A stretch of DNA of 64,000 nt from Elusimicrobiota bacterium. Its GTDB lineage: Bacteria > Elusimicrobiota > Elusimicrobia > Elusimicrobiales > UBA9959. Both the position numbers and the translations under genes were made by a program. The notes under the pieces were generated by a model. It did no database searches and had not been told where the DNA came from. It saw nothing but the letters and a program-made list of their open reading frames with translations. The stretch lies in the NCBI GenBank assembly GCA_009773155.1, contig WOVA01000009.1, forward strand, positions 82-64,081, written 5' to 3'. Shown piece by piece: positions 47,680 through 62,901 of the stretch (position 1 is the first letter of the stretch; each line of letters starts with the position of its first letter).

Positions 47680-47804
47680 GGTAAGCTCCCTGTTCTTCGT
47701 TAGTCGTTTCAATGGCGGCAATGGCCGCGCGATAATTATATAAATTTAATAAGGTGTGTGGTTTGAAAAAGGCCGGGACCGGCGCGGCGGGGTGCCGCCC
47801 GGGG

Positions 47805-48281: not shown

Positions 48282-48305
48282 GTATATATTTTTTAGTTTC
48301 AATAT

Positions 48306-48324
48306 GATAATGATTCTCATAATC
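48306..48324. promoter_or_regulatory. Second Fur box
   Basis: GATAATGATTCTCATAATC (16/19 to consensus) in the AT-rich spacer upstream of the 48361 gene. Confidence 0.8.
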
Positions 48325-48360
48325 ATATGATAAGAAAGCGAAAAGGAGACGAAAGACGAC

Positions 48361-49101
48361 ATGAAAAAGAACACGCAGTGAGCTGTAATAGCGGCCATGC
48401 TGGCCGCCCTGATGACGACGGCGGCGGCGGGGCCGGCTAAGGCCGACCCGCGCACCTTCGTCTGGACCTACGAGTACATGACGATGCACGCGGGAAAGGC
48501 GGAGCTGGGGTACTACGCGACCGCCGAAGTGGCGGACACCTCCGTCCCCGAGAACTCCACCTGGAAGCACAGGGTGGAGCTGGAATACGGCCTGACCGAC
48601 AGGACAGACCTGTCGCTCTACCAGATGTTCAGCCAGGCCAGCACGGCGACTACAAATACGTTCCGCTACGACGGGATGAAGCTGCGCGCGCGCCATCGCC
48701 TGGCCGAGAAGGGCGAGCTGCCCCTGGACACGCTGCTCTACGCCGAGTACAAGCGCGGCACCGACCTCTCGGCCCAGGGCTCCCTGGAAGCCAAGCTGAT
48801 ACTCGCAAAGGACCTGGGCAGGCTGAGGCTGGCCTATAACCAGGTGGCGGAGTTCCCCCTCGAGCGGCCTTCGGACGCGGAACACCGCTTCTCGGCCGGA
48901 GCCGGATGGAAATTCACGGACACCGTCAGGGCCGGCCTGGAGGCGACCGGCGTCTACGGGGCGGATAAGTACAATCTGGGCCCTACCGTCAACTTCAGGG
49001 CTCCCGACATGAAGGGCTGGGTCAGCCTGGGCCAGCTCTACGGTCTGAACCCGGGCAGCAAGGACTCGCAGACGCGGCTGCTGCTGGGCGTGCCGTTCTG
49101 A
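48361..49101 (+). CDS. Fur-regulated outer-membrane beta-barrel-like protein; in-frame TGA at codon 7 (open from 48397)
   Basis: SD AGGAG plus ATG 48361 gives MKKNTQ*AVIAAMLAAL... Mature part has ELEYGLTD, amphipathic strands and a C-terminal Phe. Confidence 0.7.
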
Positions 49102-49153
49102 TATACAGCCCGGCAGGGCCCCGTCCGGGACCCTGCCGGGCATACCGACGGAT

Positions 49154-49492
49154 ATGAAATATCTCCTGGACCTTTACGTTTTCGAAATTCTCGGCGTCCT
49201 CGCGGTCCTGTCGCTGGCGTCGGAGGCCGCCGGGAGAAGAGGCGCCGGCTCCGCCCGGATAAAGCTCGCCTGGAACTGGTTCCTTCTGATATCCTTCGCC
49301 GCCTGCGTACTGACGGGATTCGGACTTTTTATCCCGATGGCGAAAGAGACCTCCAGGCTGGTTTTCAAGTTCCATCTCTGGACCGGCGCGGCCTGCGCCT
49401 GGGCCGGGCTTTATCACACGGCCCTGCGCACGAAGGGGATGCTCCCCTCCCCGGCCGCCGGTCGCGGACTGGCGAGAACCGCGAAGAAGTAA
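49154..49492 (+). CDS. Small membrane protein (DUF4405-like, possibly heme-binding His pair)
   Basis: Three hydrophobic segments; LTG...H.W.G.......H pattern. Confidence 0.6.
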   Translation: MKYLLDLYVFEILGVLAVLSLASEAAGRRGAGSARIKLAWNWFLLISFAACVLTGFGLFIPMAKETSRLVFKFHLWTGAACAWAGLYHTALRTKGMLPSPAAGRGLARTAKK

Positions 49493-49528: not shown

Positions 49529-50089
49529 TTATTTCTTCTCCTTCATGTCCATGCCGCACTTGGGGCAGCGGCCGGGCTTTTCGGACTGCACGCAGCCCAT
49601 AGGGCAGGAGTATTTTTTCGCGGCAGGCTGTTCCTTCTTCTTCTCCACCAGGTCCATGCCGCACTTGGGGCAGCGGCCGGGCTTATCGGATTCCGCGCAG
49701 CCCATGGGGCAGACATACTTCTTCTTGACGGCCTTTTCCTTTACCGCGTATTTTTCCGGTTCCGCGGCGAAGGATCCGTCGCAGCCGGGGCAGCAGAAAT
49801 AATAGACCCTGTCCTTGTATGACATGGAGATAGTGTCTTTGTCCACCTTGACCTTCTCCCCCGTTACCGGGCAGACGGCGCTTTTGCCTATCTCCGCCCT
49901 GGTCACCTTCCTGTAGGCGGCCTCCGCTTTTTTGGCGGCGGCGGCCGCTTTCCCGGCCTTGGCCGGCGCCTCTTTTTTGACGGCCTGGTGCTTGTGGCCC
50001 TCATGACCGCTATGGTCGTGCTGGGCGTAGGCCGCCCCCGCCAGCAGCAGCGGCGTCAGCAGCGCTGTTATCATCATGTTCCGTTTCAT
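49529..50089 (-). CDS. Exported YHS-domain protein with two heavy-metal-binding domains
   Basis: Signal peptide, His-rich HDHSGHEGHKH, CPVTG...YYFCCPGC..F..EPEKY and two CPMGC...CPKCGM units. Confidence 0.85.
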   Translation of the reverse strand: MKRNMMITALLTPLLLAGAAYAQHDHSGHEGHKHQAVKKEAPAKAGKAAAAAKKAEAAYRKVTRAEIGKSAVCPVTGEKVKVDKDTISMSYKDRVYYFCCPGCDGSFAAEPEKYAVKEKAVKKKYVCPMGCAESDKPGRCPKCGMDLVEKKKEQPAAKKYSCPMGCVQSEKPGRCPKCGMDMKEKK

Positions 50090-50301
50090 GCTTCCTCCTT
50101 ATCCCGATCCCGGCAGCAGCCGCCTTCGGCGGCCTGTTCCTGCCCGTAAAGCTCTTCGGCCCGGCAGCAGATGCGCTCTTTGTCGGCCGCCACCCTGCCG
50201 CAGCCGGGACAGATATACCTGGCGTTCCTGGCCGCTTCTTTCAATTCCCCGAACAGTTCTTTCTTGTCCGCCATCTCGCATAGATGCGCTTTCTTTTCCA
50301 T
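50086..50301 (-). CDS. Small Cys-rich (zinc-ribbon-like) protein
   Basis: 71 aa; HLC, YICPGCGRVA, ICC and GGCC; SD GGAGG; coupled to the YHS gene. Confidence 0.7.
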   Translation of the reverse strand: MEKKAHLCEMADKKELFGELKEAARNARYICPGCGRVAADKERICCRAEELYGQEQAAEGGCCRDRDKEEA

Positions 50302-50314
50302 ACTCGCCCTCCTC

Positions 50315-51412
50315 CTAATACCGCGTCAGCGTTCTGTCTATCCTCCCGGACCAGGCGTCCAGGCCGCCTTCCAGCACGGAAACGTCCGTAAAGCCCCCGG
50401 CCTTAAGGGCGCGCCAGGCCGCGACGGCCTTGCTCCGGCCCTTGCAGTAGAGGACTATCTCCTCCTGTTGTCCTAAGCCGGCTCCGGTCCTAAGCAGTTC
50501 TTCGTGGTCCACCCACTCGTCGCCGGCGATATGGACCAGGTCGTGCTCCCATTCATAGCGCAGGTCCAGCAGGCGGGGCGGGCGCGGGCCGGACAGTTTG
50601 TCCCTGAGCGCTTCGGGCGTGATATAGTCCGGTTCGACGGACTTCAGGAACGCGCGATCGGCGGAAGCTCTGGCGCCGCAGACCGGGCAATCCTCCCTGC
50701 GCTTCAGTTCGGCGACGGTGAAGCCGCCGAGGCGGAAGTCCAGCATGACGAACCTGTCCCTGAGCGTCTCGAAGCCGAGTATCAGTTTCAGCACTTCCAG
50801 CGCCTGCATGGAGGCTACGGCGCCCGCCGCCGGCCCCATCACGCCCGCTTCCGCGCAGACCTGGGCCTCGGCGTCCTCCGTCCGGGGGCATAGGCAGGCC
50901 AGGCAGGCCCCGCGGCCCGGTGAGAAGACGGTCAACTGCCCTTCGAACTGGTAGACGGCCGCGTGCACATAGGTCTTCCCGAGCTCCAGGCAGGCCCGGT
51001 TTATGGCCGCGCGCGCCGTGAAATTGTCGGTGCAGTCGGCGATGTAATCATAGCCGGCCAGCGCGCCGCTCATGTTCCCGGATGTCAGCAGGCCCTCCCG
51101 GGTGTTGACCCTGATCCCCGGGTTTATTTCCGCCAGTTTCCGCGCGGCCAGCCCGGTCTTGAGCTTTCCCACGTCGTCCGTGCCGTAAACGAACTGGCGG
51201 TGCAGGTTGGACAGTTCGACGGGGCCGAAGTCGAAGACGCCTATCTCCCCCACGCCCGCGCCGGCCAGGTATGCCATGACTATATTCCCCAGGCCGCCGG
51301 CGCCGACCACGGCCACCCTGGCGGCTTTGAGCCTTTCCTGCCCCTCCGGCCCCACGCCCGGTATCACCAGCTGGCGGGAATAGCGTATGAGTTCTTCCTT
51401 CGACAGGGTCAT
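50315..51412 (-). CDS. MoeB/ThiF E1-like adenylyltransferase fused to a rhodanese domain (MoeZ-type)
   Basis: RYSRQ, VGAGGLG, SNLHRQ, DCTDNF, CLAC, CAEAGV, CPVCG and rhodanese YCKGRSKA...LEGGLDAW. Confidence 0.9.
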   Translation of the reverse strand: MTLSKEELIRYSRQLVIPGVGPEGQERLKAARVAVVGAGGLGNIVMAYLAGAGVGEIGVFDFGPVELSNLHRQFVYGTDDVGKLKTGLAARKLAEINPGIRVNTREGLLTSGNMSGALAGYDYIADCTDNFTARAAINRACLELGKTYVHAAVYQFEGQLTVFSPGRGACLACLCPRTEDAEAQVCAEAGVMGPAAGAVASMQALEVLKLILGFETLRDRFVMLDFRLGGFTVAELKRREDCPVCGARASADRAFLKSVEPDYITPEALRDKLSGPRPPRLLDLRYEWEHDLVHIAGDEWVDHEELLRTGAGLGQQEEIVLYCKGRSKAVAAWRALKAGGFTDVSVLEGGLDAWSGRIDRTLTRY

Positions 51413-51413
51413 A

Positions 51414-52553
51414 TCATTTCAAGGCCCGCGCCAGGTCCTCCAGCAGGTCGTCGGAATTCTCGATGCCCGCGGAGAGGCGGACCAGGCCCGCGGTTATCCC
51501 GCGCTTGAGGCGGTCGCGCTCCGGTATCGCGGCGTGCGTCATCGCCGCCGGGTAGCAGGCGAGCGACTCCACGCCGCCGAGACTCTCGGCCAGCGAGAAG
51601 ATCTTCAACCGCCTGAAGAAGCTCTCCGCCGCCGGCCGTCCCCCTTTGAGTTCGAAGCCGACCATGCCGCCGCAGCCGTCCATCTGGCGGCCGGCCAGCT
51701 CATGCCCCGGGTGGCTTTCCAGGCCGGGATAATAGACCTTCGACACCGCGGGATGGCGCGAGAGCGCCGCCGCGATCGCGAAGGCGTTGGCTTCGTGCGC
51801 CTTCATGCGCACGGACAAAGTCTTGATGCCGCGCAGCGTCAGCCAGGCGTCCCACGGCCCGGGTACCGCGCCGGCGGCGTTCTGGTAGAACTTCACCGCC
51901 TCGAAAACGCACTTGTCTTTGATCGCCAGCAGGCCGCCTATCACGTCGCTGTGGCCGCCGAGGTACTTGGTGGAACTGTGCACCACTATGTCGGCGCCCA
52001 GTTCCGCGGGCCGCTGGAAATACGGGGTGGCGAAGGTATTGTCCACGGCGAGCAGCGCTTTTCCTTTGCGGGCCGTCTCCGCTACGGCCGCTATGTCGGT
52101 GATATTGAGCAGCGGGTTGGTGGGTGTTTCCACCCAGACCAGGCGCGTACTGCGGCGCATGGCCCTTTTGAACGAGGCGGGGTCTTTGGAGTCGGCGTAG
52201 GATATCTCCAGCCCCCAGTGCCGGAAGACCTTCTCAAAGAGCCGGTATGTCCCGCCGTAGAGGTCGTCGCCGGCCACAACATGGTCGCCCTTCTTCAGCA
52301 GGCCGCCCAGCACGGCCGTTTCGGCCGCCAGGCCCGAAGCGAAAGCCAGGCCGTATTTAACCCCTTCCAGCGCCGCTATGCAGTCCTCCAGCGCCTTCCT
52401 CGTCGGGTTGCCGGTGCGGGAGTATTCCCAGCCCCGGTCGCGCCCGATGCCGTCCTGCTTATAAGTGGAGGTCTGGTATACCGGCACGCTGACCGAACCG
52501 GTCTGCCTGTCGGCCGCCTGGCCCGCGTGTATCAGCGCCGTCTCGAAGTTCAT
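51414..52553 (-). CDS. Cystathionine gamma-lyase/gamma-synthase (trans-sulfuration PLP enzyme)
   Basis: YQTSTY, YSRTGNPT, YGGT, ETPTNP, DNTFATP, HSSTKYLGGHSD and AESLGGVESL. Confidence 0.92.
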   Translation of the reverse strand: MNFETALIHAGQAADRQTGSVSVPVYQTSTYKQDGIGRDRGWEYSRTGNPTRKALEDCIAALEGVKYGLAFASGLAAETAVLGGLLKKGDHVVAGDDLYGGTYRLFEKVFRHWGLEISYADSKDPASFKRAMRRSTRLVWVETPTNPLLNITDIAAVAETARKGKALLAVDNTFATPYFQRPAELGADIVVHSSTKYLGGHSDVIGGLLAIKDKCVFEAVKFYQNAAGAVPGPWDAWLTLRGIKTLSVRMKAHEANAFAIAAALSRHPAVSKVYYPGLESHPGHELAGRQMDGCGGMVGFELKGGRPAAESFFRRLKIFSLAESLGGVESLACYPAAMTHAAIPERDRLKRGITAGLVRLSAGIENSDDLLEDLARALK

Positions 52554-53542
52554 ATAACGGTCTCCCTGGGCAGGCCGCGGCCGGCCAGCCAATCGTCGTC
52601 GTACATTTTTGAAAGATACTTGTTGCCGGTGTCGCAGACGAATGTGACTACGCGTTTGGGCGTTTTACTCTCCCGGCAGTAACGCAGGGCCGCCGCCAGC
52701 AGCGTTCCCGAAGAGGAGCCGGCCAGCACGCCCTCGGCGCGCAGCAGTTCCCGCGCGGCGGCGAAACTCTCGGCATCGGTCACCGTATAGGCCCCGGCCA
52801 CGCGCGACAGGTCGGCTATCGGAGGAATGAAGTCCTCGCCTATGCCTTCCACCAGCCAGGAGCCGGCCTTTCCCGTCGTTCCGTCCCTGACGTAGCCGGC
52901 CAGCACCGAGCCCGCCGGGTCGGCCAGGACGAATTCGGCGGCGGGCGATACGCGCGAGAAATAGCGGGAGAGGCCGGTCATGGTGCCGCCGGAACCTACT
53001 CCGCATACGATGGCGTCGACCTTATGGTCCATCTGTTCCCATATCTCCGGGCCCGTAGTCTTTTCGTGCGCGTCCGGGTTGGCGGGATTGGCGAACTGGT
53101 TGATGTAGAAGCTGTCCGGAGTTTCCCCGGCTATGCGCTCCGCCATTTCCTGGTAGTACTCGGGGTGGCCCTTCTCCACGTCGGAGCGGGTAACCACTAT
53201 CCGGGCGCCGAGCGCGCGCAGGTGGGAGATCTTCTCCCGGCTCATCTTGTCGGGGATCACGAGGGTAAGGTTGTAGCCCTTCTGCGCGGCCACCAGCGCC
53301 AGGCCCAGGCCCGTGTTGCCCGCGGTGGCCTCCACCAGCGTGGAGCCGGGGCGCAGTTTCCCTTCCTTCTCGGCGGCGGTGATCATGGAGAGCGCTATCC
53401 GGTCCTTAATGGAGCCGCCGGGGTTCTGGCACTCCAGTTTCAGGAAAAGTTCGCACCTGCCCGCGTCCAGCTTCCGCGCCTTCAGCAGCGGCGTATTCCC
53501 TATCAGGTCGAGCACGGTGCCGGTATTTCTGGTTTCTTCCAT
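52550..53542 (-). CDS. Cystathionine beta-synthase / cysteine synthase family PLP enzyme
   Basis: IGNTPL, KLECQNPGGSIKDR, EATAGNTG, NQFANPAN, GSGGT, VEGIG and DTGNKYLSK (CBS-type motifs). Confidence 0.9.
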   Translation of the reverse strand: MEETRNTGTVLDLIGNTPLLKARKLDAGRCELFLKLECQNPGGSIKDRIALSMITAAEKEGKLRPGSTLVEATAGNTGLGLALVAAQKGYNLTLVIPDKMSREKISHLRALGARIVVTRSDVEKGHPEYYQEMAERIAGETPDSFYINQFANPANPDAHEKTTGPEIWEQMDHKVDAIVCGVGSGGTMTGLSRYFSRVSPAAEFVLADPAGSVLAGYVRDGTTGKAGSWLVEGIGEDFIPPIADLSRVAGAYTVTDAESFAAARELLRAEGVLAGSSSGTLLAAALRYCRESKTPKRVVTFVCDTGNKYLSKMYDDDWLAGRGLPRETVI

Positions 53543-53557
53543 GACGGTTCTCCCGTA

Positions 53558-55762
53558 CTACAACTTCAGCTTTCTGAGGCGCAGGGAGTTGACGACAACG
53601 GAAACGGAACTCATCGCCATGGCTCCCCCCGCGAAGTAAGGCGGTATCAACAGCCCCCAGACGGGATACAGGACGCCGGCGGCCAGGGGCACGAGCGCCG
53701 CGTTATAGGCGAAGGCCCAGACGAGGTTCTGCGTTATATTGCGCCTGATCGCTTTTGCGAGTTTTAAAGCCTGCGCCACGCCCGCTATGCCGTTGTGCAT
53801 GAGGGTGATGTCGCTGGCCTTGACGGCTATGTCCGCGCCTGACCTGAGGGCTATTCCTATGTCCGCTTCCGAAAGGGCGGCGGCATCGTTGAAACCGTCC
53901 CCCACAAACGCCACCTTCGCGCCCAGGGCTTTGTGGCGCATGATTATGCCGCTCTTCTCTTCCGGGAAGATCTCGGCGTAAAATTCTTCGATCCCCAGGG
54001 TCCCGGCCAGGGCCTCCACGGCGGCCCGCCTGTCGCCGGAAGCTATTACCGGCTTTATGCCCATAGCGGTCAGTCCGGCCACCAGCCCGGCGGCTTCCGG
54101 CCTGAGCGTGTCGGAAAGTTCGGCGTAGCCCCTGAAGATCCCGTTCTCCGCGAGCAGCAGCAGAGAGCCGGCGGAAGCCTTTATCTCCGCCGCCGCCTCG
54201 TCCGGCACCGGCACGCCAAGTTCGGCGAACCACTTGGCGCTGCCGGCCATGATCTCGCCGCCGCCAGCCTTCACTTTAATTCCCTTGCCCGGCACCGCTT
54301 CAACGGAGTCCGGTTTCCGATGGACAATATGGCGTTCCCGGGCGTATAGCCGCACCGCCTCGGCGAAGGGATGTTCGGAGCTCTCTTCCGCGCTCAGCAG
54401 GAGCGACAGGAACTGCGGCTCGCTTATCGCCCGCGGGCGCACGGCGGAGACTTTCATGCGCCCTTCCGTAAGCGTTCCGGTCTTGTCGAAGATGATAACG
54501 TCTATTTTCGGAATGCGTTCAAGCGCTTCCGCGTTATTGATCAGCATCCCGAGTTCCGCCGCCCGGCCGAAGCCCACGGACACCGCCATCGGCACCGCCA
54601 GGCCCATGGCGCAGGGGCAGGCCACGGCCAGTACCGCCGCGAAAACGCCGACGGCGCGCGGGAGGTCGGCGTAATGAAGCCACACTCCGCCCGCGCCAAG
54701 GGCCAGCAGGATAACGGCCGGCACGAAATACGACGAGATGCGGTCCACCAGCCGCTGCACGGAGTTCTTGCCCGCCTGGCTTTCTTCCACGGCCTTGATG
54801 ATCTTCATCAGCGCCATGTCCTCTCCCACGCCGGTGGCGGTGAACTCCAGCGCGCCGGTCTTGTTTATGGTCCCGGCGTAGAGCTTCGCCCCCGGCGCCT
54901 TGTCCTGCGGCACCGGCTCGCCGGTCAGCAGAGCCTCGTCCACGCTGGAGAAACCGCCGAGGACGGCGCCGTCCACCGGCACCTGCTCGCCGGGGCGCAG
55001 GCGTATGACGTCCCCGGGCAGAATGCTTTCCGCCGGCACCACTTCCTCGGCGCCGTCCTTAAGGCGCCTGGCGGTTTTCGGCGCTAATTTAAAAAGCCCG
55101 GACACGGCCTCCGCGGCTTTGCTTTTGGAGCGCGCCTCCAGCCAGCGTCCGAGGTTTATAAAAGTTATCAGCATGGCCACTTCATGCCATTGGGCGTGCT
55201 GGTGCGCGCCGGCGAGGCGCGGGAAGAAGGTTATGGCCAGACCGTAGAAAAATATGACGCTGGTGCTCAGGGAAACCAGCGTGTTCATGTCGGCGGTGCG
55301 GGCTTTAAGCGCCCGCAGCAGGCCTGCGTGGAAATGGGAGCCGCACCAGCCCCAGGCCAGGGCCGCCGCCGCCATGACCGTATACGGCGGCAGGTCCGCG
55401 GCGAGTTCCAGCAGTGTGTAGCCGGTCAGGGCCAGCGCGGCCAGGAATTTTACCCGGAACAGGCGTTTCTCCTCTTCCAGGCCGGCCGTGGCGATATTCT
55501 CCGCCTTGGCCGGCGACTCCAGGACGCCCAGGGCTTTATAGCCCAGTTCGGCTATCCGGTCCGCGAGCTGCGCCGGTCCGACCCCGGCGGGGTCGTATAG
55601 AATAAAGGCGGTTCTGGAGGGCAGGTTTACGGATACCCGTTTCATGCCCGGAACTTTTTCCAGGCCTGTTTCGATGCGGCTTACGCAGCTGGCGCAATGT
55701 ACGCCTTCGAGCGGGATCACCGCTTTTTTCAGGTTTTCTTCCGGGCTGACGAGGCGCTTCAT
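53558..55762 (-). CDS. copA: Copper-translocating P1B-type ATPase
   Basis: HMA HCASC, TGEP, CPCAMG, DKTGT, SEHP, GDGFND, YN and MAMSSVSV (P1B-1 signature). Confidence 0.93.
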   Translation of the reverse strand: MKRLVSPEENLKKAVIPLEGVHCASCVSRIETGLEKVPGMKRVSVNLPSRTAFILYDPAGVGPAQLADRIAELGYKALGVLESPAKAENIATAGLEEEKRLFRVKFLAALALTGYTLLELAADLPPYTVMAAAALAWGWCGSHFHAGLLRALKARTADMNTLVSLSTSVIFFYGLAITFFPRLAGAHQHAQWHEVAMLITFINLGRWLEARSKSKAAEAVSGLFKLAPKTARRLKDGAEEVVPAESILPGDVIRLRPGEQVPVDGAVLGGFSSVDEALLTGEPVPQDKAPGAKLYAGTINKTGALEFTATGVGEDMALMKIIKAVEESQAGKNSVQRLVDRISSYFVPAVILLALGAGGVWLHYADLPRAVGVFAAVLAVACPCAMGLAVPMAVSVGFGRAAELGMLINNAEALERIPKIDVIIFDKTGTLTEGRMKVSAVRPRAISEPQFLSLLLSAEESSEHPFAEAVRLYARERHIVHRKPDSVEAVPGKGIKVKAGGGEIMAGSAKWFAELGVPVPDEAAAEIKASAGSLLLLAENGIFRGYAELSDTLRPEAAGLVAGLTAMGIKPVIASGDRRAAVEALAGTLGIEEFYAEIFPEEKSGIIMRHKALGAKVAFVGDGFNDAAALSEADIGIALRSGADIAVKASDITLMHNGIAGVAQALKLAKAIRRNITQNLVWAFAYNAALVPLAAGVLYPVWGLLIPPYFAGGAMAMSSVSVVVNSLRLRKLKL

Positions 55763-55787
55763 AAATTGATTCCCGCTCCCTCTCTGG

Positions 55788-58700
55788 TCAAGTATACTGC
55801 CGCATCTCGTCGGACGCCCCTGTTTCGCGCTTCTTCCACAGGTAGAACACCACCGGGTAGACCAGCAGTTCAAGCGCGAAGCTGGTGAACAGGCCGCCTA
55901 TCATCGGCGCGGCTATGCGCTTCATCACGTCGGCCCCCGTGCCCAGCGACCACATTATGGGGATAAGTCCCATGAAGGCGGTCATCACGGTCATCATCTT
56001 GGGCCGCACGCGCTTGACCGCGCCGTGCACGACGGCTTCCTGGAGGTTTTTCAGCGTGAACGGGCGCCCGCTCTTGCGGAGTTCCTCGTAAGCGAGGTCC
56101 AGGTAGAGCAGCATGAACATGCCGGTCTCGGCGTCTAGGCCCATCAGGGCGATCATGCCCACCCAGACCGCTATCGACATGTTATAGTCGAGCAGCCAGA
56201 CGAACCACACGGCCCCGATGAGCGAGAACGGCACGGCCAGCAGGACGATGCCGGTCTTGACCGCCGACTTCGTGTTCATGTAGATCAGCAGGCAGATAAG
56301 GAAGAGAGTGAGCGGCAGCACGAACGTCAGGCGCTCGCGCACGCGGAGCATGTTCTCGTACTGCCCGCTCCATTGCAGCGAATATCCCGGCGGCAGCTTC
56401 ACGTGGCCGGCCACCATGCGCTTGGCGTTCTTCACGTAGGTCCCCACGTCCACGCCCGCGATGTCCACGTAGACGTAGCCGGAGAGCAGGCCGTTCTCGT
56501 TGCGTATCATCGCGGGGCCCGAGCGGAAGACGATGTCGGCCAGCTGGCCCAGCGGCACGTTCACCCCGTTCTCCGCCGTAACCAGCACGCGCCTGAGCTT
56601 GTCGACGTCGTCGCGGAAATCCCGGGCGTAGCGCACGTTGACGGAGTAGCGCTCCCGGCCCTCCACCGTGGTGGTCAGGTTCTGGCCGCCGATGGCGGTC
56701 ATCAGCGCCATCTGCGCCTCTTTCACGGTAAGGCCGTAGCGGGCGAGCTGGTCGCGCCGCAGCTCGAAGTCGAGGAAGTAGCCGCCGGCGGTGCGCTCGG
56801 CGTAGACGCTGCGGGTGCCCTTGACCTGGCGCACGATCCGCTCCACCTCCAGGCCGGTCTCCTCTATGGTCTTGAGGTCCGAGCCGAAGATCTTGATGCC
56901 CACGGGGGTGCGCACGCCGGTGCTGAGCATGTCGATGCGGGCTTTTATCGGCATGGTCCAGGCGTTGGATACCCCGGGGAACCGCATTTTCGAATCTATT
57001 TCGTCTATCAGTTCGTCCCAGGTCATCCTGTCGTACCAGACCCGGCGCAGCGCCGCTTTAAGGAACTCCGGCGCCCAGGACGAGTACCAGCGGTCCTTGC
57101 CGCGCCACTGGTCCATCGGCTTGAGCACCGCGACCGTCTCCATCATCGAGAACGGCGCGGGGTCGGTGGAGGTGTCCGCGCGGCCCGCCTTGCCGTGGAC
57201 GCGCTCCACTTCCGGGATGGATTTGAGTATCCTGTCCTGCGCCTGCATAAGCCGCTGCGCCTCGGTGATCGAGATGCCGGGCAGGGTGGTCGGCATATAG
57301 AGGATAGTGCCTTCGTTGAGCGGGGGCATGAACTCGGAGCCGATCTTAAGATAGACGGGTATAGTGGTGAGCACCAGGACCAGCGCTCCCGCCAGCACCT
57401 TTCGCGGGTGTTCCAGCGTCCAGCGGCAGACGGGCTCGTAGACCCTGAAGAGCCGCCGCGAGACCGGGTGCTTTTCCTCGGGATAATATTTCCCTACGGT
57501 GACGGCGTTGACCAGGCCGGAGAGCCAGGCCGGACGGAAATGGACATAGTCCATGCGGGTGAACATCATGCGCAGCGCCGGGTCCAGCGTTATGGCCAGT
57601 ATGGCGGCGACGAACATCGTCAGGTTCTTGGTGTAGGCCAGCGGCTTGAAGAGGCGGCCTTCCTGGTCCACAAGGGTGAAGATCGGCAGGAAAGCCACGG
57701 CTATCACCAGCAGGGCGTAGAAGACCGACGGGCCCACCTCCTGCAGCGCCTCCAGGCGCACGGCGTGGAAGTCGCCTTTGCGCCCCCCGGCCTCCCAGTG
57801 TTCCAGTTTCTTGTAGGCGTTCTCCACCTCGACTATGGCGCCGTCCACCAGCACGCCTATGGAGATGGCTATGCCGGCCAGCGACATGATGTTGGAACTG
57901 ATGCCGGCCAGGTACATCGGGATGAAGGCCAGCAGGACCGCCACCGGGATGGTCACGATGGGTATTATCGCCGAGGGGATGTGCCAGAGGAAGAAAAGTA
58001 TGACAAGGCTGACTATTATCATCTCCACCGTGAGCTGGCTTTTGAGCGTGGCGATGGCGCGCTTGATGAGGTCGGAGCGGTCGTACGTGGTCAGTATCTC
58101 CATCCCTTCCGGCAGCGAGGTCTTTATTTCCTCCAGGCGTTCCTTGACGCGCTCTATCACGGTGAGCGCGTTCTCGCCGTGGCGCATGACCACTATGCCG
58201 CCCACGGCGTCCCCCTCGCCGTCGAGGTCCCCGAGGCCGCGGCGCATTTCCGGCGCGGCCGTCACCTTCGCCACGCTTTTGACCAGGACGGGGGTGCCGC
58301 CGGGGCCGCGGGCGGCCACCACTATCTCCTCTATGTCCCTTATGGATTTGGCGTAGCCCCTGCCGCGGATCATGTACTCGGCGCCGGCGTACTCTATCAG
58401 GCGGGCGCCGGTCTCCTCGTTCCCCTCCTGTACGGCCTTCATGACCGCGCCGATCGAAATTCCGTGGGCGGCCAGCGCGTCCGGATCGAGGTTGACCTGG
58501 TACTGCTTCTGGAAGCCGCCGAAAGCCGCCACCTCGGCCACGCCCGGCACCGACTGCAGCTGGTAGCGCAGGTTCCAGTCCTGGAAGGAACGCAGTTCGG
58601 CCAGGTCGTGGCGGCCGGTCCTGTCCACGAGGGCGTACTGGTAGATCCAGCCCACGCCGGTGGCGTCGGGGCCCAGCTCGGTCCTGACGCCGTCGGGCAG

Positions 58701-59057
58701 CTGCGGCAGGATCTTGCTGAGGTATTCCAGCACGCGCGAGCGCGCCCAGTAGATGTCGGTGCCGTCCTCGAAGATGACGTAGACGTAGGAGAAGCCGAAA
58801 TCGGAGAAGCCGCGGATGGTCTTCACGCCGGGCAGGCCGAGCAGGGAGGCAATGACCGGGTAGGTGACCTGGTCCTCGATGACGTCCGGCGAGCGGTCCC
58901 ACCGGGAGTAGACGATGACCTGCGTGTCGGAGAGGTCCGGTATGGCGTCGAGACTGATGTTCTTTACGGAGTAGACGCCCGCCGCGACCGCGGCCAGCGC
59001 TATTATCAGCACCAGTACCCGGTTATTGGCGGAGAAAGATATGATGTTCCGTATCAT
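55788..59057 (-). CDS. cusA: Heavy-metal efflux RND permease, CusA type
   Basis: DAIPDLSDTQV, YWARSRVLE, GPDATGVG, YMPTTLPG, PFSMMET, PIKARIDML and RIAAPMIGG. Confidence 0.94.
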   Translation of the reverse strand: MIRNIISFSANNRVLVLIIALAAVAAGVYSVKNISLDAIPDLSDTQVIVYSRWDRSPDVIEDQVTYPVIASLLGLPGVKTIRGFSDFGFSYVYVIFEDGTDIYWARSRVLEYLSKILPQLPDGVRTELGPDATGVGWIYQYALVDRTGRHDLAELRSFQDWNLRYQLQSVPGVAEVAAFGGFQKQYQVNLDPDALAAHGISIGAVMKAVQEGNEETGARLIEYAGAEYMIRGRGYAKSIRDIEEIVVAARGPGGTPVLVKSVAKVTAAPEMRRGLGDLDGEGDAVGGIVVMRHGENALTVIERVKERLEEIKTSLPEGMEILTTYDRSDLIKRAIATLKSQLTVEMIIVSLVILFFLWHIPSAIIPIVTIPVAVLLAFIPMYLAGISSNIMSLAGIAISIGVLVDGAIVEVENAYKKLEHWEAGGRKGDFHAVRLEALQEVGPSVFYALLVIAVAFLPIFTLVDQEGRLFKPLAYTKNLTMFVAAILAITLDPALRMMFTRMDYVHFRPAWLSGLVNAVTVGKYYPEEKHPVSRRLFRVYEPVCRWTLEHPRKVLAGALVLVLTTIPVYLKIGSEFMPPLNEGTILYMPTTLPGISITEAQRLMQAQDRILKSIPEVERVHGKAGRADTSTDPAPFSMMETVAVLKPMDQWRGKDRWYSSWAPEFLKAALRRVWYDRMTWDELIDEIDSKMRFPGVSNAWTMPIKARIDMLSTGVRTPVGIKIFGSDLKTIEETGLEVERIVRQVKGTRSVYAERTAGGYFLDFELRRDQLARYGLTVKEAQMALMTAIGGQNLTTTVEGRERYSVNVRYARDFRDDVDKLRRVLVTAENGVNVPLGQLADIVFRSGPAMIRNENGLLSGYVYVDIAGVDVGTYVKNAKRMVAGHVKLPPGYSLQWSGQYENMLRVRERLTFVLPLTLFLICLLIYMNTKSAVKTGIVLLAVPFSLIGAVWFVWLLDYNMSIAVWVGMIALMGLDAETGMFMLLYLDLAYEELRKSGRPFTLKNLQEAVVHGAVKRVRPKMMTVMTAFMGLIPIMWSLGTGADVMKRIAAPMIGGLFTSFALELLVYPVVFYLWKKRETGASDEMRQYT

Positions 59058-59064
59058 AAGCCTG

Positions 59065-60210
59065 TCAGTCCCCCAGGGCCGCCCGCATCCTGGACTCCGA
59101 GTCTATCAGGAAGTTGGCCGAGGTCACTACCTTCTCTCCGGCGGAGACGCCCGAGCGCACCTCCACGTAGTCCCCGCCCCGCCTGCCGGTGCGGACCTCG
59201 CGCGGCTCGAAGACGCCGCCGTCCTTCATAACGAAGACCAGCTCCTTCTCGCCCGTGTCGAGCACGGCGCCGGCGGGCACCGTCAGCGCCGTGCCGAGGC
59301 CGGCCTCTATGCGGACCTCCACGTACATCTCCGGGCGCAGTTCCAGGGCCGGGTTCTCCGTTTCTATCCTGGCGCGCAGGGTGCGCGTCTCCCCGGAAAG
59401 TACCGGGTCCAGCGAGCGCACGACGCCGTAAAAATCCCTGCCCGGCCAGGCGCGGGACCGTATGGCGGCCTTCTGGCCCGGCTTCACGGCCGCGGAGTCG
59501 TATTCGTAGACCTGCGCGTAAACCCAGGCCCGCTCGCGCGGCAGCAGCAGGTTCTCGAAACTCGCGGAGTCCCCTTCGGCCTCCGCCAGCTGGCCTTCGT
59601 CGAGGCCGAGCTGCAGCAGCCGCAGCCTGGCGGCGTCAGCCAGCGCGGCCGCCCGTTCCCTGGCGTCCGGCCAGCCGCTCCGCTTCATGCGGTCGCGCGC
59701 GGCCGCGGCCTCGCGGTATTCGGTCACGGCGCTGTAGAGAGCGGGATCGTACGCGACCTTTCCGGTGGCGCTGATCGTCCTGGCCAGGCCGCGCCAGGCG
59801 GCGACGCCGGTCTTGAGGCCTATCAGCTGCTGTTTTTCCGGCGTGAGCGTGACCATGCCGTGCCCCGGAACCTGCGACTTGCGCTCCCCGCCGGCCGCGG
59901 CTTCCTTTTTGACGAGGTGCATGTTGCAGATCGGGCAGTCGCCCGGCCTGTCCGAGGTAACGTCCGGGTGCATCGGGCAGTAGTACAGATCCGCCGGCGG
60001 CGCGGGAGCCTCTTTCTTTACCAGATGCATATTGCAGATCGGGCAGTCTCCCGGACTGTCGGAGGTGACGTCCGGGTGCATCGGGCAGTAGTACAGTTCG
60101 GCCTGCGTGTGAGCGCGGCCGCCGTCGTAGTGCTTCCAGGCGGCGTAGCCGCCTCCGAGCAGCAGCGCCGCTCCCAGCGCGGCGGCGGCGAGTCTTGACC
60201 TGGAAATCAT
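59065..60210 (-). CDS. cusB: RND periplasmic adaptor, CusB type, with two heavy-metal-binding domains
   Basis: Two YYCPMHP...CPICNMHL units, ETRTLRAR, LRPEMY and ANFLIDSES. Confidence 0.88.
   Translation of the reverse strand: MISRSRLAAAALGAALLLGGGYAAWKHYDGGRAHTQAELYYCPMHPDVTSDSPGDCPICNMHLVKKEAPAPPADLYYCPMHPDVTSDRPGDCPICNMHLVKKEAAAGGERKSQVPGHGMVTLTPEKQQLIGLKTGVAAWRGLARTISATGKVAYDPALYSAVTEYREAAAARDRMKRSGWPDARERAAALADAARLRLLQLGLDEGQLAEAEGDSASFENLLLPRERAWVYAQVYEYDSAAVKPGQKAAIRSRAWPGRDFYGVVRSLDPVLSGETRTLRARIETENPALELRPEMYVEVRIEAGLGTALTVPAGAVLDTGEKELVFVMKDGGVFEPREVRTGRRGGDYVEVRSGVSAGEKVVTSANFLIDSESRMRAALGD
59900..60096 (-). repeat. Tandem duplication (108-bp period) encoding two HMBD units in cusB
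   Basis: Near-identical units at about 59900-59988 and 60008-60096 (LYYCPMHPDVTSDxPGDCPICNMHLVKKEA). Confidence 0.85.
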
Positions 60211-61430
60211 AAGCCTTCTCCTGTTATGGACATTTTGCGGGCCCGCCAATAGGCGTACTCGGCCCGGGACCGGTAAGATTCGCGTTGTACTTCCAGCAGC
60301 GCGCGGCCGGCCTCGATGAGTTCGAGGAAAGATGTCTGCCCGGCCTCGTAAGAAGTCCGGGATGCCTTGAGCGCCTGTTCGGCCTGCAGGACGGCGGAGT
60401 CATAGATATGGATGAGGTTGGCGCAGCAGTCCAGCTCCAGCACCGCGGACTTGAGCTCCAGCAGCAGCGCGTTGCGGGCGGCGTTGTATTCCGCCTCGGC
60501 CATGGCCCGCTCCGCCTTGGCCTCCCGCAGTTCCGCCTTGTTGCGGCCGAACCATAAGGGCAAGGTCAACCCCAGCGACATGTCGTAAGTGCCGTCCATC
60601 GCGGCGCTGTCGGCGGAGCGGCGCCGCAGCCCCACCATGAAGTCCGGCGCGTAGCCGGCCTTGGCCCGCGTCACTTTGCTGTCGTAAGCCCCGACCCTGG
60701 CCCTGAGCGCCTTGAGCAGGGGATTGTCGGCCAGCGCCGCCGCTTCCAGGGCGGCGTAATCGGCGGGTTCCGGCGAGAAATCCTCCTCCTCCGGAGCGCC
60801 GACGGCGGCGGCCGGCGGGCGGTTGCGCAGCGCGTTGAGCCGCGCCGCCGCGATTCCCTTTTTCTGTGTCGCTTCCAGCAGCAGTCCCTGCGCCTTTGAA
60901 AGCTCGACCTGCGCTTTCAGCGCGTCGGCCTGGGAGCCCCGCCCGGCCGCGTAGCGGCTTTCGGCGGCCCGCGCGAAGCCGCGCAGGAGCTCCAGGTTCT
61001 CCGTGTAAAGGCGCTCTGTGCGGGTCGACAGCAGGTAGTTGTGAAAGGCTTCCACCGCCTCCGCCAGCACCTTGTTGGCGCGTTCCCCGGAGAGCCCCTT
61101 GTAATATGAGCTTTCGCCCAGCGCGGCGTTCCTCGCCAGCCGGGACTTGTAGGGATTCCTGAATTCCTGCCGCACGGCGATCGTCCGCTCCGCGGCGCCG
61201 GCCCCCAGCGGGCCGTCGGCGTACATGCGCTCGAATTCAAGGACAGGGTCCATCGGCAGCCAGGACTGGCGTACCCGGGCGGCGGCGGCTTTTGAGAGGC
61301 CGGCCGCGGCGGCTATCTCCGGGTTGGCGGCCCTGACCTCCTCCAGGAACGACTGGAGGGCAAGGCGCGGCCCCTCCCCAGCGCAGAGTGTTGGCGTTAA
61401 AAATAAAAAAAACGCGACGATCGGTTTCAT
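60207..61430 (-). CDS. TolC/CusC family outer-membrane efflux protein
   Basis: Signal peptide; ANPEI, RYAAG...D.LKAQ, LTLPLW and YEAGQTSFLELI. Confidence 0.9.
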   Translation of the reverse strand: MKPIVAFFLFLTPTLCAGEGPRLALQSFLEEVRAANPEIAAAAGLSKAAAARVRQSWLPMDPVLEFERMYADGPLGAGAAERTIAVRQEFRNPYKSRLARNAALGESSYYKGLSGERANKVLAEAVEAFHNYLLSTRTERLYTENLELLRGFARAAESRYAAGRGSQADALKAQVELSKAQGLLLEATQKKGIAAARLNALRNRPPAAAVGAPEEEDFSPEPADYAALEAAALADNPLLKALRARVGAYDSKVTRAKAGYAPDFMVGLRRRSADSAAMDGTYDMSLGLTLPLWFGRNKAELREAKAERAMAEAEYNAARNALLLELKSAVLELDCCANLIHIYDSAVLQAEQALKASRTSYEAGQTSFLELIEAGRALLEVQRESYRSRAEYAYWRARKMSITGEGL

Positions 61431-61437
61431 AACTCCC

Positions 61438-61689
61438 TCATCTCAGCCTGGCCGCCAGGGCGTTGAGCCCGGGCAGATGGTAAAGCACGACTCCGGCCAG
61501 CACCAGCAGGTAGGCGAGACCGGTCAGGACAGCGGCCTTCGCGAGCTTCCGTCCCCGGTCCGTGATGGACGGGTCTTTAAGCGCCAGCACGCCGAAGGCC
61601 ACTGCCATAGCGGCTTTCTCCACCCCGAAAAAATGAATAAAAGAGAATACCCCCATTGTAAGGGCGGCCAGGGCCAGTTTAGTGGACAT
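61438..61689 (-). CDS. Small membrane protein
   Basis: MSTKLALAALTMGVFSFIHFFGVEKA...; start overlaps the anti-sigma stop; 3 hydrophobic segments. Confidence 0.65.
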   Translation of the reverse strand: MSTKLALAALTMGVFSFIHFFGVEKAAMAVAFGVLALKDPSITDRGRKLAKAAVLTGLAYLLVLAGVVLYHLPGLNALAARLR

Positions 61690-62221
61690 AAGTTTTCTCC
61701 ATAGCGCAGGACTTGCACGGGCAAAGATGGCCCTTCCCGGCTTCGCGCATGCAGCCGCACAGATAGGCGGAGCATTCGTTGCAGAGCCTGGCCACCGCCA
61801 CGGGGTTGATGATGCTGGAGGGCCGGAGCATCTGCGCCACGGTCTTTTTCGCCAGTTCCCCGCGCTGAACGCTTTCAAGGGCGCCGGCGTTGAGCGCGAA
61901 AGTAAGGGCGTTGAGCAGTATGAACGCCGAGAGCGCGACGGCGGCGGGGGCCGGCAGCCGCAGGAAGCGCAGCAGGGAGGACCGTTCCCGCTCCAGCGCC
62001 GCGGCGGCCGCGGCTACTCGCGCGGCGAAGAAAGGAGGCGGCTCCGCGGCCGGCAGGGCCCGCAGGCCGCTTTCGGCCGTCCGCATCCGGTCAAGGGCGG
62101 CGGCGCAGGAGGGGCAGCCTTTGAGATGTTCTTCCAGCCGGCCCGCTCCGGCCGGTGTAAGCTCGCCGTCCATATAGGCCGACAGGTTCCGCAGGTGTCC
62201 GCAGTTTTTCTGGTCGGGCAT
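61679..62221 (-). CDS. Zinc-finger (HxxxCxxC) anti-sigma factor with a Cys-rich C-terminal domain
   Basis: LSAYMDGEL...HLKGCPSC, one TM segment and C-terminal CNEC...CGC...CPCKSC. Confidence 0.85.
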   Translation of the reverse strand: MPDQKNCGHLRNLSAYMDGELTPAGAGRLEEHLKGCPSCAAALDRMRTAESGLRALPAAEPPPFFAARVAAAAAALERERSSLLRFLRLPAPAAVALSAFILLNALTFALNAGALESVQRGELAKKTVAQMLRPSSIINPVAVARLCNECSAYLCGCMREAGKGHLCPCKSCAMEKTYVH

Positions 62222-62271
62222 AGATTTGTCCTCTACGCCTTTCAACGCAGGAACGGCCGGAAACTTGCGGC

Positions 62272-62850
62272 CTATCTTTTGAGTTTTTTCGCCAGGGTCT
62301 GCCTGGCGCGGAAAAGAAGCGATTCTACCGAAGGAACTGTTAGGTTCATTATCTCGGCTATCTCCGCGTAGGAGCGGTCCTCGTAGACCCGCAGAAGAAT
62401 GGCGGTGCGCTGCGAATCCGGCAGGGCGCCCAGCGCCGCGGCCGCCGCCTCTTCGCCCTGGGCCTTCTCCATAAGCTGTTCGGGCGAAGCGTCGCCCGCG
62501 GGGTCAAGGCCGCGCTCCGACGCGGCGTCCAGGCTGGAGACGGGAGCGCGGGCGTACCGGGAGGCGGCGCGCCTGCCGCTGTCGACGGCCAGGTTGTAGG
62601 CGAAGCGGAAGATAATGGTGGAGAGGGCGGCCCTGGGTTCCAGGGCGGGCGAAGCCCGGTAAAGGCGGAGGAAGGTTTCCTGCGCCAGGTCCTCGGCCGT
62701 CCCGCGGTCGCGTGTGTAGCGGTAGAGGAAATTTATCAGCCTGCCGGCATACTTCTCCACGATGCGCGCGAAGGCGGACTCGTCGCCTCCGTTGAAGGCG
62801 GCGATCAGGTCGAAATCCTCCGGCAGGTCCGGCTTCCGCTCTTCGCTCAT
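62272..62850 (-). CDS. ECF RNA polymerase sigma factor
   Basis: AEDLAQETFLR and LPDSQR...SYAEIAEIM...SVESLLFRAR. Confidence 0.93.
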   Translation of the reverse strand: MSEERKPDLPEDFDLIAAFNGGDESAFARIVEKYAGRLINFLYRYTRDRGTAEDLAQETFLRLYRASPALEPRAALSTIIFRFAYNLAVDSGRRAASRYARAPVSSLDAASERGLDPAGDASPEQLMEKAQGEEAAAAALGALPDSQRTAILLRVYEDRSYAEIAEIMNLTVPSVESLLFRARQTLAKKLKR

Positions 62851-62901
62851 TAGACTATTCTACTTTATCGGGCCGCCGACCGAGGCCGTTGGTTCGGCCG
62901 C

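Follow-up and report, generated by a model that had tools for sequence, protein, structure and literature searches.

In the genome of an uncultured member of the Elusimicrobia, genes for copper and silver efflux and genes for sulfur-amino-acid metabolism form one uninterrupted run, and this linkage between a Cu/Ag efflux system and a cassette of cystathionine β-synthase (CBS), cystathionine γ-lyase (CGL) and frequently a MoeZ-like sulfurtransferase is conserved over at least six genera of the host family. The run occupies positions 49529-62850 on the minus strand of a 64,000-nucleotide stretch of contig WOVA01000009.1 (here contig C16), which was analysed as a whole and is called the window below. 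The contig belongs to a 2.76-Mb metagenome-assembled genome (MAG; G000) of 93 contigs with a marker-gene completeness of 100%; genomes close to it carry the labels Elusimicrobia, Elusimicrobiales or Elusimicrobiaceae and come from groundwater and similar sources. The sequencing runs listed as containing the sequence are six of DNA (groundwater and drinking-water metagenomes from three studies) and none of RNA. The conservation of the linkage, its absence from distantly related CGL loci, the position of the cassette between the pump genes and the genes for periplasmic cysteine-rich binders, and the junctions of translational-coupling type found here argue, at the level of sequence, for a functional coupling of metal efflux and sulfur metabolism. 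Among the ways in which such coupling might work, we tentatively favour, at not quite an even chance, a metal-induced supply of cysteine and reduced sulfur that does not depend on free sulfide.

A gene run for metal efflux and sulfur-amino-acid metabolism

The original prediction, made from the letters of the sequence alone, listed twelve co-directional genes with overlaps or with gaps of at most 50 nucleotides (nt), and all twelve were found in this arrangement, with no junction exceeding 50 nt once the start codons had been refined. From 5′ to 3′ they encode an extracytoplasmic function (ECF) sigma factor, an anti-sigma factor, a small membrane protein, an outer-membrane factor (OMF), CusB, CusA, CopA, a CBS core, CGL, a MoeZ-like protein, a 71-aa cysteine-rich protein and a YHS/HMBD protein. 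Families were assigned by Pfam and NCBIfam model scores relative to the model cut-offs and match those proposed before, except that the ‘CBS’ is a catalytic core of 330 aa, devoid of the Bateman (CBS-pair) module. Two gene starts were corrected, i.e. CGL begins with the ATG at 52553 and not with the TTG at 52592, and CopA begins at 55762.

At the head of the run, 50 nt separate the sigma and anti-sigma genes, the latter overlaps the gene for the small membrane protein by 11 nt, and 7 nt follow before the OMF gene. The pump genes are joined by a 4-nt ATGA overlap (OMF to CusB) and by gaps of 7 nt (CusB to CusA) and 25 nt (CusA to CopA). The sulfur genes continue directly, with 15 nt between CopA and CBS, a 4-nt ATGA overlap between CBS and CGL and a single nucleotide between CGL and MoeZ, and the 3′ end is attached by 13 nt (MoeZ to the 71-aa gene) and a further 4-nt ATGA overlap (71-aa gene to YHS/HMBD gene). 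Stop and start codons overlap at four junctions in all, one overlap being of 11 nt and three of the ATGA type. A simple scan of the minus strand between 49529 and 53558 revealed neither a sigma-70-like promoter nor a terminator-like site, and folding at the CopA–CBS junction is not unusual (z -0.83).

Conservation of the linkage within one family

The host family was searched as 80 species-level genomes (Elusimicrobiaceae-type MAGs); up to 20 kb were fetched around the CGL and CusA orthologues, and all window proteins were mapped onto these loci by tblastn. Of the 80 genomes, 22 have a CGL orthologue, with 23 loci in all, four of which are cut by contig ends. At 15 of the 19 uncut loci, CGL lies on the same strand as, and within about 5 kb downstream of, a gene for a CusA-type resistance–nodulation–division (RND) pump. 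Thirteen of these stand behind CusA orthologues with 73-95% identity, and the remaining two (G002 and G060) behind another RND pump with 40% identity and the same sigma/anti-sigma head. Elsewhere, CGL is found immediately upstream of TolC-CusB-CusA (G007), or as part of a CBS-CGL-Crp group 19 kb from cusA on the same contig (G010), whereas the most divergent CGLs (58-61%; G043 and G044) lie beside genes for a CsoR-type repressor, a YHS protein and an HMA protein. Genus g13 (L113:6779-7759 and L112:4038-4798) shows CGL next to a CsoR-type repressor, a YHS protein and a CopZ-like HMA protein, with a periplasmic binding-protein gene (Phosphonate-bd) preceding. Where 5 kb or more of sequence is available upstream of CBS-CGL-MoeZ (ten loci), a pump together with sigma and/or anti-sigma genes is always found there. 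The possibility that the linkage is unique to this genome, which had been named as a reason to abandon the idea of a combined system, is therefore gone.

As a background we took the best 80 metagenome loci by CGL protein, 79 of which show 53-62% identity. The remaining one is a close relative (89% identity), with a CBS-like gene, CGL and MoeZ on a 2.7-kb contig. CBS is nearby at 31 of the 79 background loci, but in their 726 kb of flanking sequence, where 38 of the 79 have at least 5 kb on one side, none has a match to CusA, CusB, TolC, CopA, YHS or HMBD, and none has MoeZ. Since the arrangement recurs across the family and metal-gene neighbours are missing from all 79 distant CGL loci, it exceeds chance; for the same reason the linkage is real and belongs to this lineage, rather than being something that CGL genes show in general.

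A quick maximum-likelihood tree was computed for 102 CGLs (22 from family loci and 80 from metagenome loci, leaving out two partial family CGLs at contig edges); in it, the family sequences and the close metagenome relative form one clade with an SH-aLRT support of 99. Branching inside this clade does not track genus labels, and in the simplest history it would have arisen once, with later rearrangement and exchange inside the family. The linkage has survived rearrangement, as the cassette is found behind two types of RND pump and in varied order relative to the binder genes.

MoeZ orthologues (at least 58% identity) were detected at 23 loci in 21 of the 80 family genomes. In a sample of 401 genomes of the phylum, they are present in 9 of 46 family genomes and in none of 354 others, and among 12 genome-contig loci, all from Elusimicrobia, there was no close relative from beyond the family. 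At 18 of the 23 loci MoeZ adjoins a cysteine-making pyridoxal phosphate (PLP) enzyme, following CBS-CGL in 15 cases and a true CysK (TIGR01139 above cut-off) in three (G019, G003 and G075). It stands in unrelated contexts in G057, G092 and others, and FecR/MFS, xanthine dehydrogenase or NadA genes are also among the neighbours of MoeZ orthologues.

The enzymes of the cassette

The CBS core (52550..53542, minus strand) matches PALP with 264 bits and TIGR01137 with 359.5 against a cut-off of 510, covering model positions 4-322 of 457. A full-length relative with a Bateman module scores 427.5 and likewise stays under this cut-off. The module is missing from the 330-aa proteins of the window, G002 and G060, but is kept in most relatives (455-467 aa, e.g. 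L028:4210-5577), which match the whole TIGR01137 model. The nearest PDB matches are CBS enzymes, including Rv1077 of Mycobacterium tuberculosis. The catalytic motifs are intact: SIKDR at residue 44, GNTG at residue 75 and GSGGT at residue 183, presumably providing the PLP lysine and the phosphate-binding glycine loop. We therefore treat the protein as a CBS-clade catalytic core with a predicted choice of substrates.

CGL (51414..52553, minus strand) matches PF01053 with 504 bits, carries the SSTKY motif with the PLP lysine, and its top PDB matches are mostly CGLs, bacterial ones included. With NCBIfam it reaches the model NF005871 (‘cystathionine gamma-synthase’, MetB type; 533.6 versus 513) and stays below NF005810 (bifunctional CGL/homocysteine desulfhydrase; 502 versus 594). 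Its membership in the CGL/synthase family is certain by sequence, and the CGL reaction is a prediction.

The MoeZ-like adenylyltransferase/sulfurtransferase (50315..51412, minus strand) combines a ThiF domain (241.5 bits) with a rhodanese domain (50 bits) and has the expected motifs, i.e. GAGGLG (GxGxxG), the zinc cysteines CLAC and CPVC and a rhodanese loop CKGRSK with the active-site cysteine. It scores far below the MoeZ equivalog models (NF005902, 252.3 versus 647; NF006444, 260.4 versus 449) and is the sole MoeB/ThiF-type E1 of its kind in the genome. In G090 the MoeZ frame is split in two by a frameshift or an assembly error (L075:4674-5823), and MoeZ of G008 (L030:13059-14090) has an in-frame deletion of about 18 residues.

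A cassette of variable composition

Across the family, the conserved frame consists of sigma factor, anti-sigma factor, small membrane protein, OMF, CusB, CusA and a secreted YHS/HMBD protein, often with a second HMBD protein and a Crp-family regulator, and the cassette is usually placed between cusA and the binder genes. CGL is its constant member, CBS a usual and MoeZ a frequent one. The full set CBS-CGL-MoeZ is present in G000, G002, G020, G008, G066, G074, G062, G072, G067 and, with the broken frame, in G090; CBS-CGL without MoeZ occurs in G060, contig C20 of G065 and contig C11 of G068; and G003 and G010 combine CGL with a second, shorter type of CBS. In G055, the genome of which has no CBS orthologue, CGL stands alone (cusA-CGL-HMBD-Crp). 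In seven genomes (the window, G020, G072, G067, G003, G055 and G090) the first cassette gene begins 10-85 nt past the preceding gene with no evident terminator between them.

In G066, G074, G062 and G090 the cassette follows the binder genes and a radical SAM/SPASM gene. The product of the latter is peptide-maturase-like, with all NCBIfam models under cut-off, and it is encoded between the HMBD binders and CBS on the minus strand (L062:9570-10784, L060:9083-10297, L064:9519-10733 and L075:8462-9679); no substrate peptide for this enzyme was identified.

Sulfur and cofactor inventory of the genome

The CGL of the run is the only true Cys_Met_Meta_PP enzyme of the genome, other matches reaching about 31-33 bits, and therefore no other transsulfuration or direct sulfhydrylation route is encoded; methionine is probably imported. 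An S-adenosylhomocysteine hydrolase is present, so that homocysteine should be available from the S-adenosylmethionine (SAM) cycle. A CysE-CysK pair is encoded elsewhere in the genome, which is 100% complete and in which neither a sulfite-reductase hemoprotein (NIR_SIR) nor a Sat-type ATP sulfurylase was found, CysDN not having been searched for. Because CysE-CysK is present without a detected sulfite reductase or Sat, normal cysteine synthesis seems to depend on external sulfide.

For MoeZ, roles in molybdenum cofactor or thiamin synthesis were considered and set aside for this genome, since the partners were not found (no match to MoaE in the genome, and for ThiG a partial match of 23.6 bits only). 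A JAMM peptidase (Prok-JAB) likewise had no match in the genome. The genome encodes one ThiS/SAMP-like (MoaD-like) protein of 99 aa that ends in PPVSGG (contig C10:17473-17769; L033:1498-1797, minus strand). Its gene lies between a Mur-ligase-like gene, the end of which it overlaps, and a flavodiiron-type gene that follows. In relatives the orthologous gene comes directly after a separate short MoeB, which the window genome does not have. None of the loci read encodes, together with the PLP enzyme, a carrier with a C-terminal Gly-Gly or a JAMM peptidase.

Sigma factor, anti-sigma factor and upstream element

The first gene of the run (62272..62850, minus strand) encodes an ECF-type sigma factor with Sigma70_r2 and r4_2 domains (TIGR02937 92.1 versus a cut-off of 42.9), and its orthologues also stand first in related loci. 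Consistent with an ECF sigma/ZAS anti-sigma pair, it has sigma-70 regions 2 and 4 only and its neighbour is an anti-sigma factor with an H-x3-C-x2-C motif. The latter (61679..62221, with an open reading frame that stays open up to 62245; minus strand) matches zf-HC2 with 42.1 bits versus 22.2 and consists of an N-terminal, cytoplasmic part with this motif, one transmembrane helix and a cysteine-rich C-terminal tail. In all 14 aligned orthologues, this tail (61679-61800, minus strand) has seven invariant cysteines and a histidine in the order C-x2-C-x3-C-x-C...H...C-x-C-x2-C. It is a plausible extracytoplasmic sensor of Cu/Ag, i.e. of soft metals, and may represent an undescribed Cu/Ag-sensing module on an ECF anti-sigma factor. 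The small membrane protein that follows (61438..61689, minus strand; 83 aa, two helices) has a weak match to DUF4190 and is conserved in related loci.

Upstream of the sigma gene, an AT-rich element, AAAGTAGAAT, is located at 62857..62866 on the minus strand. With the consensus AAAGTARAAT it is found 6-9 nt 5′ of the sigma start codon in 7 of 8 aligned upstream regions, the flanks of which diverge, and is the sole element conserved there. AAGTARAAT stands directly 5′ of the sigma gene, in matching strand and position, in 11 of 25 family loci scanned (L026, L028, L062, L065, L070, L075, L092, L093, L096, L104 and L107), as compared with five more matches in these loci that lie elsewhere or have no sigma match. 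In the window itself the box has one exact match, and allowing one mismatch gives 9 matches versus 2.3 expected. The box resembles a -10 element; if it acts as one, the sigma mRNA would begin with little or no leader. The window also contains one string resembling an ECF-type promoter (GGAAC-N16-CGTT-like), within the 3′-terminal part of the upstream gene, but G002 does not share it. The upstream gene (62902-63894, minus strand; 51 nt 5′ of the sigma gene) encodes a 330-aa protein with no Pfam or NCBIfam match and is found in the same place in G002 only, with 74% identity.

Pump genes and predicted substrate

The pump consists of a TolC/OEP-type OMF (60207..61430; PF02321, 121.7 bits), a CusB-type membrane fusion protein (59065..60210) and CusA (55788..59057), all encoded on the minus strand. 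The fusion protein has two N-terminal HMBD modules, HlyD_D23 and CusB_dom_1 and would thus be the right kind of adaptor, but a divergent one that does not reach the CusB subfamily model (NF007303, 114.4 versus 390) or RND_mfp (90.7 versus 94.9). CusA exceeds the cut-off of the heavy-metal RND model TIGR00914 (1067.3 versus 701). Because it is far closer to CusA of E. coli (1003.6 bits) than to ZneA (463.9 bits), and because the three metal-site methionines of E. coli CusA, as counted here with residue numbers that we take to be those of the Cu(I)/Ag(I) site, align with methionines, its predicted substrate class is Cu(I)/Ag(I).

CopA (53558..55762, minus strand) is a P1B-type Cu(I) ATPase by model score (TIGR01511, 515.2 versus 397) and motifs (HMA CASC at residue 60, CPC at 419 and DKTGT at 463), and its ATG at 55762 is preceded by GGGAG. 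A CopA orthologue between cusA and CBS was seen in the window and in no relative read. In G002, a gene of the XdhC family (XdhC_C; L026:14844-15671) follows the YHS/HMBD gene, and then comes a CopA (L026:16014-18440) with N-terminal YHS and two HMBD modules. Several relatives have, directly after cusA, a gene for a membrane protein of about 63-68 aa with a Met-rich helix and a His-rich tail (...GHAH/EHAH), which is not in the window (L106 about 3240-3430, L060:7809-8015 and L064:7542-7733) and could be a periplasmic metal-handling peptide.

The 71-aa protein, the binders and the 3′ end of the cluster

The 71-aa protein (50086..50301, minus strand) is a predicted cytoplasmic protein of an unnamed family that has no Pfam or NCBIfam match. 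Its 135 database relatives are all ‘hypothetical’ and mostly from Elusimicrobia, and the ESM Atlas returned unnamed clusters only, with scores below 0.9. In an alignment of nine homologues, four cysteines (C8, C31, C34 and C45) are invariant. Its gene is usually found directly 5′ of the YHS/HMBD gene, wherever that gene sits (e.g. L060:8048-8227, L062:8637-8816 and L107:13136-13339), and by this genomic association its product appears to be a partner of the YHS/HMBD protein and not of MoeZ. A role as sulfur carrier for MoeZ was rejected, given the lack of a conserved C-terminal Gly-Gly, the four invariant cysteines and a position that tracks YHS/HMBD.

The YHS/HMBD gene (49529..50089, minus strand) encodes a His-rich protein with a signal-peptide-like N-terminus, one YHS and two HMBD modules by Pfam and 6.5% cysteine. 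A second secreted cysteine-rich protein with a C-terminal HMBD by Pfam (46999..47721, minus strand) and a Crp-family regulator (46325-47038) form the conserved 3′ end of the cluster in relatives, and this HMBD240-Crp pair follows the cluster in 12 fetched family loci. The cysteine content of the binders is 5.3-9.9%, as compared with 0.81% for open reading frames of at least 300 aa in the genome. Between the two binder genes lies a convergent trio (47850..49492, plus strand) of genes for a Fur-family regulator with many cysteines (PF01475, 103 bits), a 234-aa protein of no known family and a 112-aa membrane protein; the same trio is present in G003 and G060.

Discussion

In the reading that we favour, the cysteine-rich tail of the membrane anti-sigma factor would respond to Cu(I)/Ag(I) stress by release of the ECF sigma factor, which would drive expression of the CusCBA pump, here reinforced by CopA, and of the secreted cysteine-rich YHS/HMBD binders. 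The sulfur-amino-acid cassette, inserted between pump and binder genes, would in this genome be read with both. CBS and CGL would then convert serine and homocysteine from the methionine/SAM cycle to cysteine, a route that needs no free sulfide. Soft metals bind both thiols and sulfide; Cu(I)/Ag(I) would increase the demand for thiols and at the same time, by titrating free sulfide, remove the sulfur source. As normal cysteine synthesis seems to require just this sulfide, the cassette would keep cysteine available in metal stress. Cysteine, and H2S or persulfide from side reactions of both enzymes, could buffer metal in the cytoplasm and supply the cysteine-rich proteins of the operon, with the operon's own binders accounting for part of the thiol demand. 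MoeZ would be an optional third member, probably providing protein-bound sulfur, either as a rhodanese persulfide or as a thiocarboxylate on the single ThiS/SAMP-like protein, and its role is the weakest step of the proposal. The CysK–MoeZ pairs would represent the same theme of cysteine supply, with sulfur kept in a bound form.

Several findings weigh against this reading. At nine CusA loci the downstream sequence can be read and contains no sulfur genes (G009, G054, G015, G081, G086, contig C15 of G065, G079, G053 and G093), so that the cassette is dispensable. MoeZ is missing or broken in 6 of the 15 pump-linked cassettes (missing in G003, G055, G060, contig C20 of G065 and contig C11 of G068, broken in G090), and it also occurs in non-metal contexts. 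CGL is found without any CBS orthologue in G055 and in G043/G044; without CBS it cannot complete the conversion of homocysteine to cysteine, and a release of sulfide from cysteine or homocysteine fits these cases better. All family CGLs fall into a single clade, so that the linkage may stem from one event and the loci do not count as independent observations. In G074 and G062, moreover, the radical SAM gene and CBS are separated by a strong hairpin with a U-tract (z -3.7 and -4.6; L062:10805-10840 and L064:10752-10781 for the region of hairpin and element 5′ of CBS), and differences in its stem keep the pairing. A conserved element similar to an extended -10 box, TTTGATACAAT, precedes CBS in both genomes, where it follows the hairpin, and also in G066 (L060). 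With hairpin and element in front of CBS, the cassette may in this arrangement be its own transcription unit with its own promoter. The original prediction had regarded a separate promoter of the sulfur genes as evidence against its proposal, and the outcome differs between genomes, with no promoter-like site found in the window and a promoter-like element before CBS in three relatives. Its broader claim of a combined efflux–sulfur system is supported in part by the gene identities, the conserved linkage and the coupling-type junctions, but the twelve genes as a set are not a conserved unit, as CopA is found in the window only, MoeZ is optional and nine operons do without the cassette.

The main alternative, a real possibility if an unlikely one, is that the cassette is a dedicated generator of sulfide or persulfide with a net conversion of homocysteine to H2S. 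CBS would join cysteine and homocysteine, thereby freeing H2S, and CGL would split cystathionine to cysteine or desulfhydrate cysteine or homocysteine; the sulfide or sulfane sulfur, possibly by way of the MoeZ rhodanese, would trap Cu(I)/Ag(I) in the cell, in the periplasm or outside and so prevent re-entry. This would account for CGL being the constant member, which does without a CBS orthologue behind cusA in G055 and beside CsoR, YHS and HMA genes in G043/G044, and it agrees with the short CBS here having no regulatory module. The CBS and CGL clades are known bacterial H2S producers, and the enzymes of the run fall into these canonical clades, with PDB matches that include bacterial CGLs. 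Formation of cadmium sulfide that is driven by CGL-type enzymes or, as reported in PMC7912247, by methionine-derived sulfur points in the same direction. The CysK–MoeZ pairs of G019, G003 and G075, however, consume sulfide, the apparent reliance on imported methionine would make sulfide a costly product, and neither a sulfide exporter nor a mineral-nucleating function is evident. A related scheme of pumping and precipitating, which we consider rather unlikely, would have a CBS/CGL cycle that recycles cysteine and makes H2S while MoeZ holds bound sulfur. Sulfide would meet the Cu(I)/Ag(I) expelled by Cus and CopA at the envelope, where Cu2S/Ag2S would be locked outside the cytoplasm with the YHS/HMBD proteins as capture sites. 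Supply of cysteine and generation of sulfide are not mutually exclusive.

That there is no functional coupling, the cassette being a passenger that entered a recombination-prone site behind cusA on one occasion and has since been inherited or exchanged along with it, seems improbable. One insertion could explain much of the pattern, given the single CGL clade, and the nine Cus operons without a cassette, the promoter-like element in three relatives, the terminator-like hairpin before two of these and the MoeZ genes next to FecR/MFS, xanthine dehydrogenase or NadA genes would all be expected of a passenger. Yet the linkage has been kept over six genera, two types of RND pump and several gene orders and compositions; even the most divergent CGLs (58-68% identity) adjoin copper genes, and every family CGL locus with readable flanks has metal genes in its surroundings. 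In the window, the junctions from CopA onwards are 4-nt overlaps or gaps of at most 15 nt, with the binder genes on the far side. Highly improbable, finally, is a system centred on MoeZ, in which a thiocarboxylated small carrier would feed a CysO/CysM-like synthesis of protein-bound cysteine or the synthesis of a thio-acid (PDTC-like) copper chelator, with CBS and CGL as auxiliary enzymes. The architecture of ThiF plus rhodanese with an active-site cysteine, a single ThiS/SAMP-like protein ending in GG in a genome with no other MoeB, and the pairing of MoeZ with a true CysK in three relatives would suit such a system. It is hard to reconcile with the absence of a carrier gene in or beside the loci read and of JAMM/Mec+ in the genome, with a 71-aa protein that has no conserved Gly-Gly and travels with YHS/HMBD, with a ThiS-like gene that in relatives sits by a separate short MoeB, and with six pump-linked cassettes (the broken one of G090 included) that have no MoeZ. 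Other genes of chelator biosynthesis were not seen at the locus, although no search was aimed at them.

Much of the killing by copper and silver is due to their attack on thiols and iron–sulfur clusters. Many bacteria respond to copper stress by inducing cysteine synthesis, but by way of separate regulons. Here, the genes for the two responses are wired into one run across a family of uncultured groundwater bacteria, with a sulfur part that behaves like a module to be plugged in or left out. Provided that the coupling is functional, it would represent a natural design for export combined with a supply of thiols or sulfide, offer a direct way to test cysteine supply against sulfide release as a protection from soft metals, and indicate how bacteria that do not produce sulfide cope when metals strip it from their surroundings. 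This would be relevant to metal cycling in aquifers and drinking-water systems and to engineered metal recovery.

Comparison with known systems

With CusCFBA of E. coli the run shares an RND pump strongly similar to CusA, including the three metal-site methionines, a CusB-type adaptor and an OMF, all in one operon. It differs in being headed by an ECF sigma/anti-sigma pair instead of the two-component system CusRS and in containing CBS-CGL-MoeZ; CusF was not seen in the window run, which has HMBD modules on CusB and separate secreted YHS/HMBD proteins. Nickel–cobalt RND efflux systems headed by an ECF sigma factor and a membrane anti-sigma factor are encoded by cnrYXH-CBA and nccYXH-CBA of Cupriavidus metallidurans. 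The head of the run is of the same kind, but the metal class is different, and whereas cnr and ncc use a separate sensor of the CnrX type and are not known to include genes of sulfur metabolism, the anti-sigma factor of the window itself carries the cysteine-rich tail.

Pairs of adjacent genes from the same two enzyme families make up reverse transsulfuration in M. tuberculosis (Rv1077/Rv1079) and B. subtilis (MccA/MccB). The pair described here is distinguished by its position inside a Cu/Ag efflux operon, as opposed to the 79 background loci without metal genes, and by the loss of the Bateman module in this genus. CysO-CysM-Mec+ with MoeZ is a stress-induced, thiocarboxylate-dependent cysteine pathway of M. 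tuberculosis, and the likeness consists in an enzyme of ThiF plus rhodanese linked to cysteine synthesis that would avoid free sulfide in times of stress. The window, however, has no carrier gene and the genome no JAMM peptidase, the PLP enzyme is of the CBS type and not CysM, and the MoeZ model is matched with 252 versus 647 only.

CGL of S. maltophilia is reportedly involved in metal sulfide biomineralisation. In Pseudomonas sp. GC01, methionine-derived sulfur gives rise to CdS (PMC7912247). The run described here would resemble these cases in directing CGL or methionine-derived sulfur against a soft metal; there, the metal is cadmium, and no linkage of the genes to an efflux operon is reported. 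In Acidithiobacillus caldus, an SscR/CsoR circuit ties copper efflux to reactive sulfur species (PMC12455602), a link that is also mentioned in a review (PMC13467558); it consists of regulators and their regulon and involves other enzymes, whereas here it takes the form of a physical operon with CBS and CGL. The full-text literature searched, which covers few subscription journals, yielded no description of cbs, cgl or moeZ inside a cus or cop operon. Thus, every part of the system is of a known kind, i.e. CusCBA, CopA, the ECF sigma/anti-sigma pair, CBS/CGL and MoeZ, and it is their combination in one gene run that is apparently new and, as far as searched, confined to one family.

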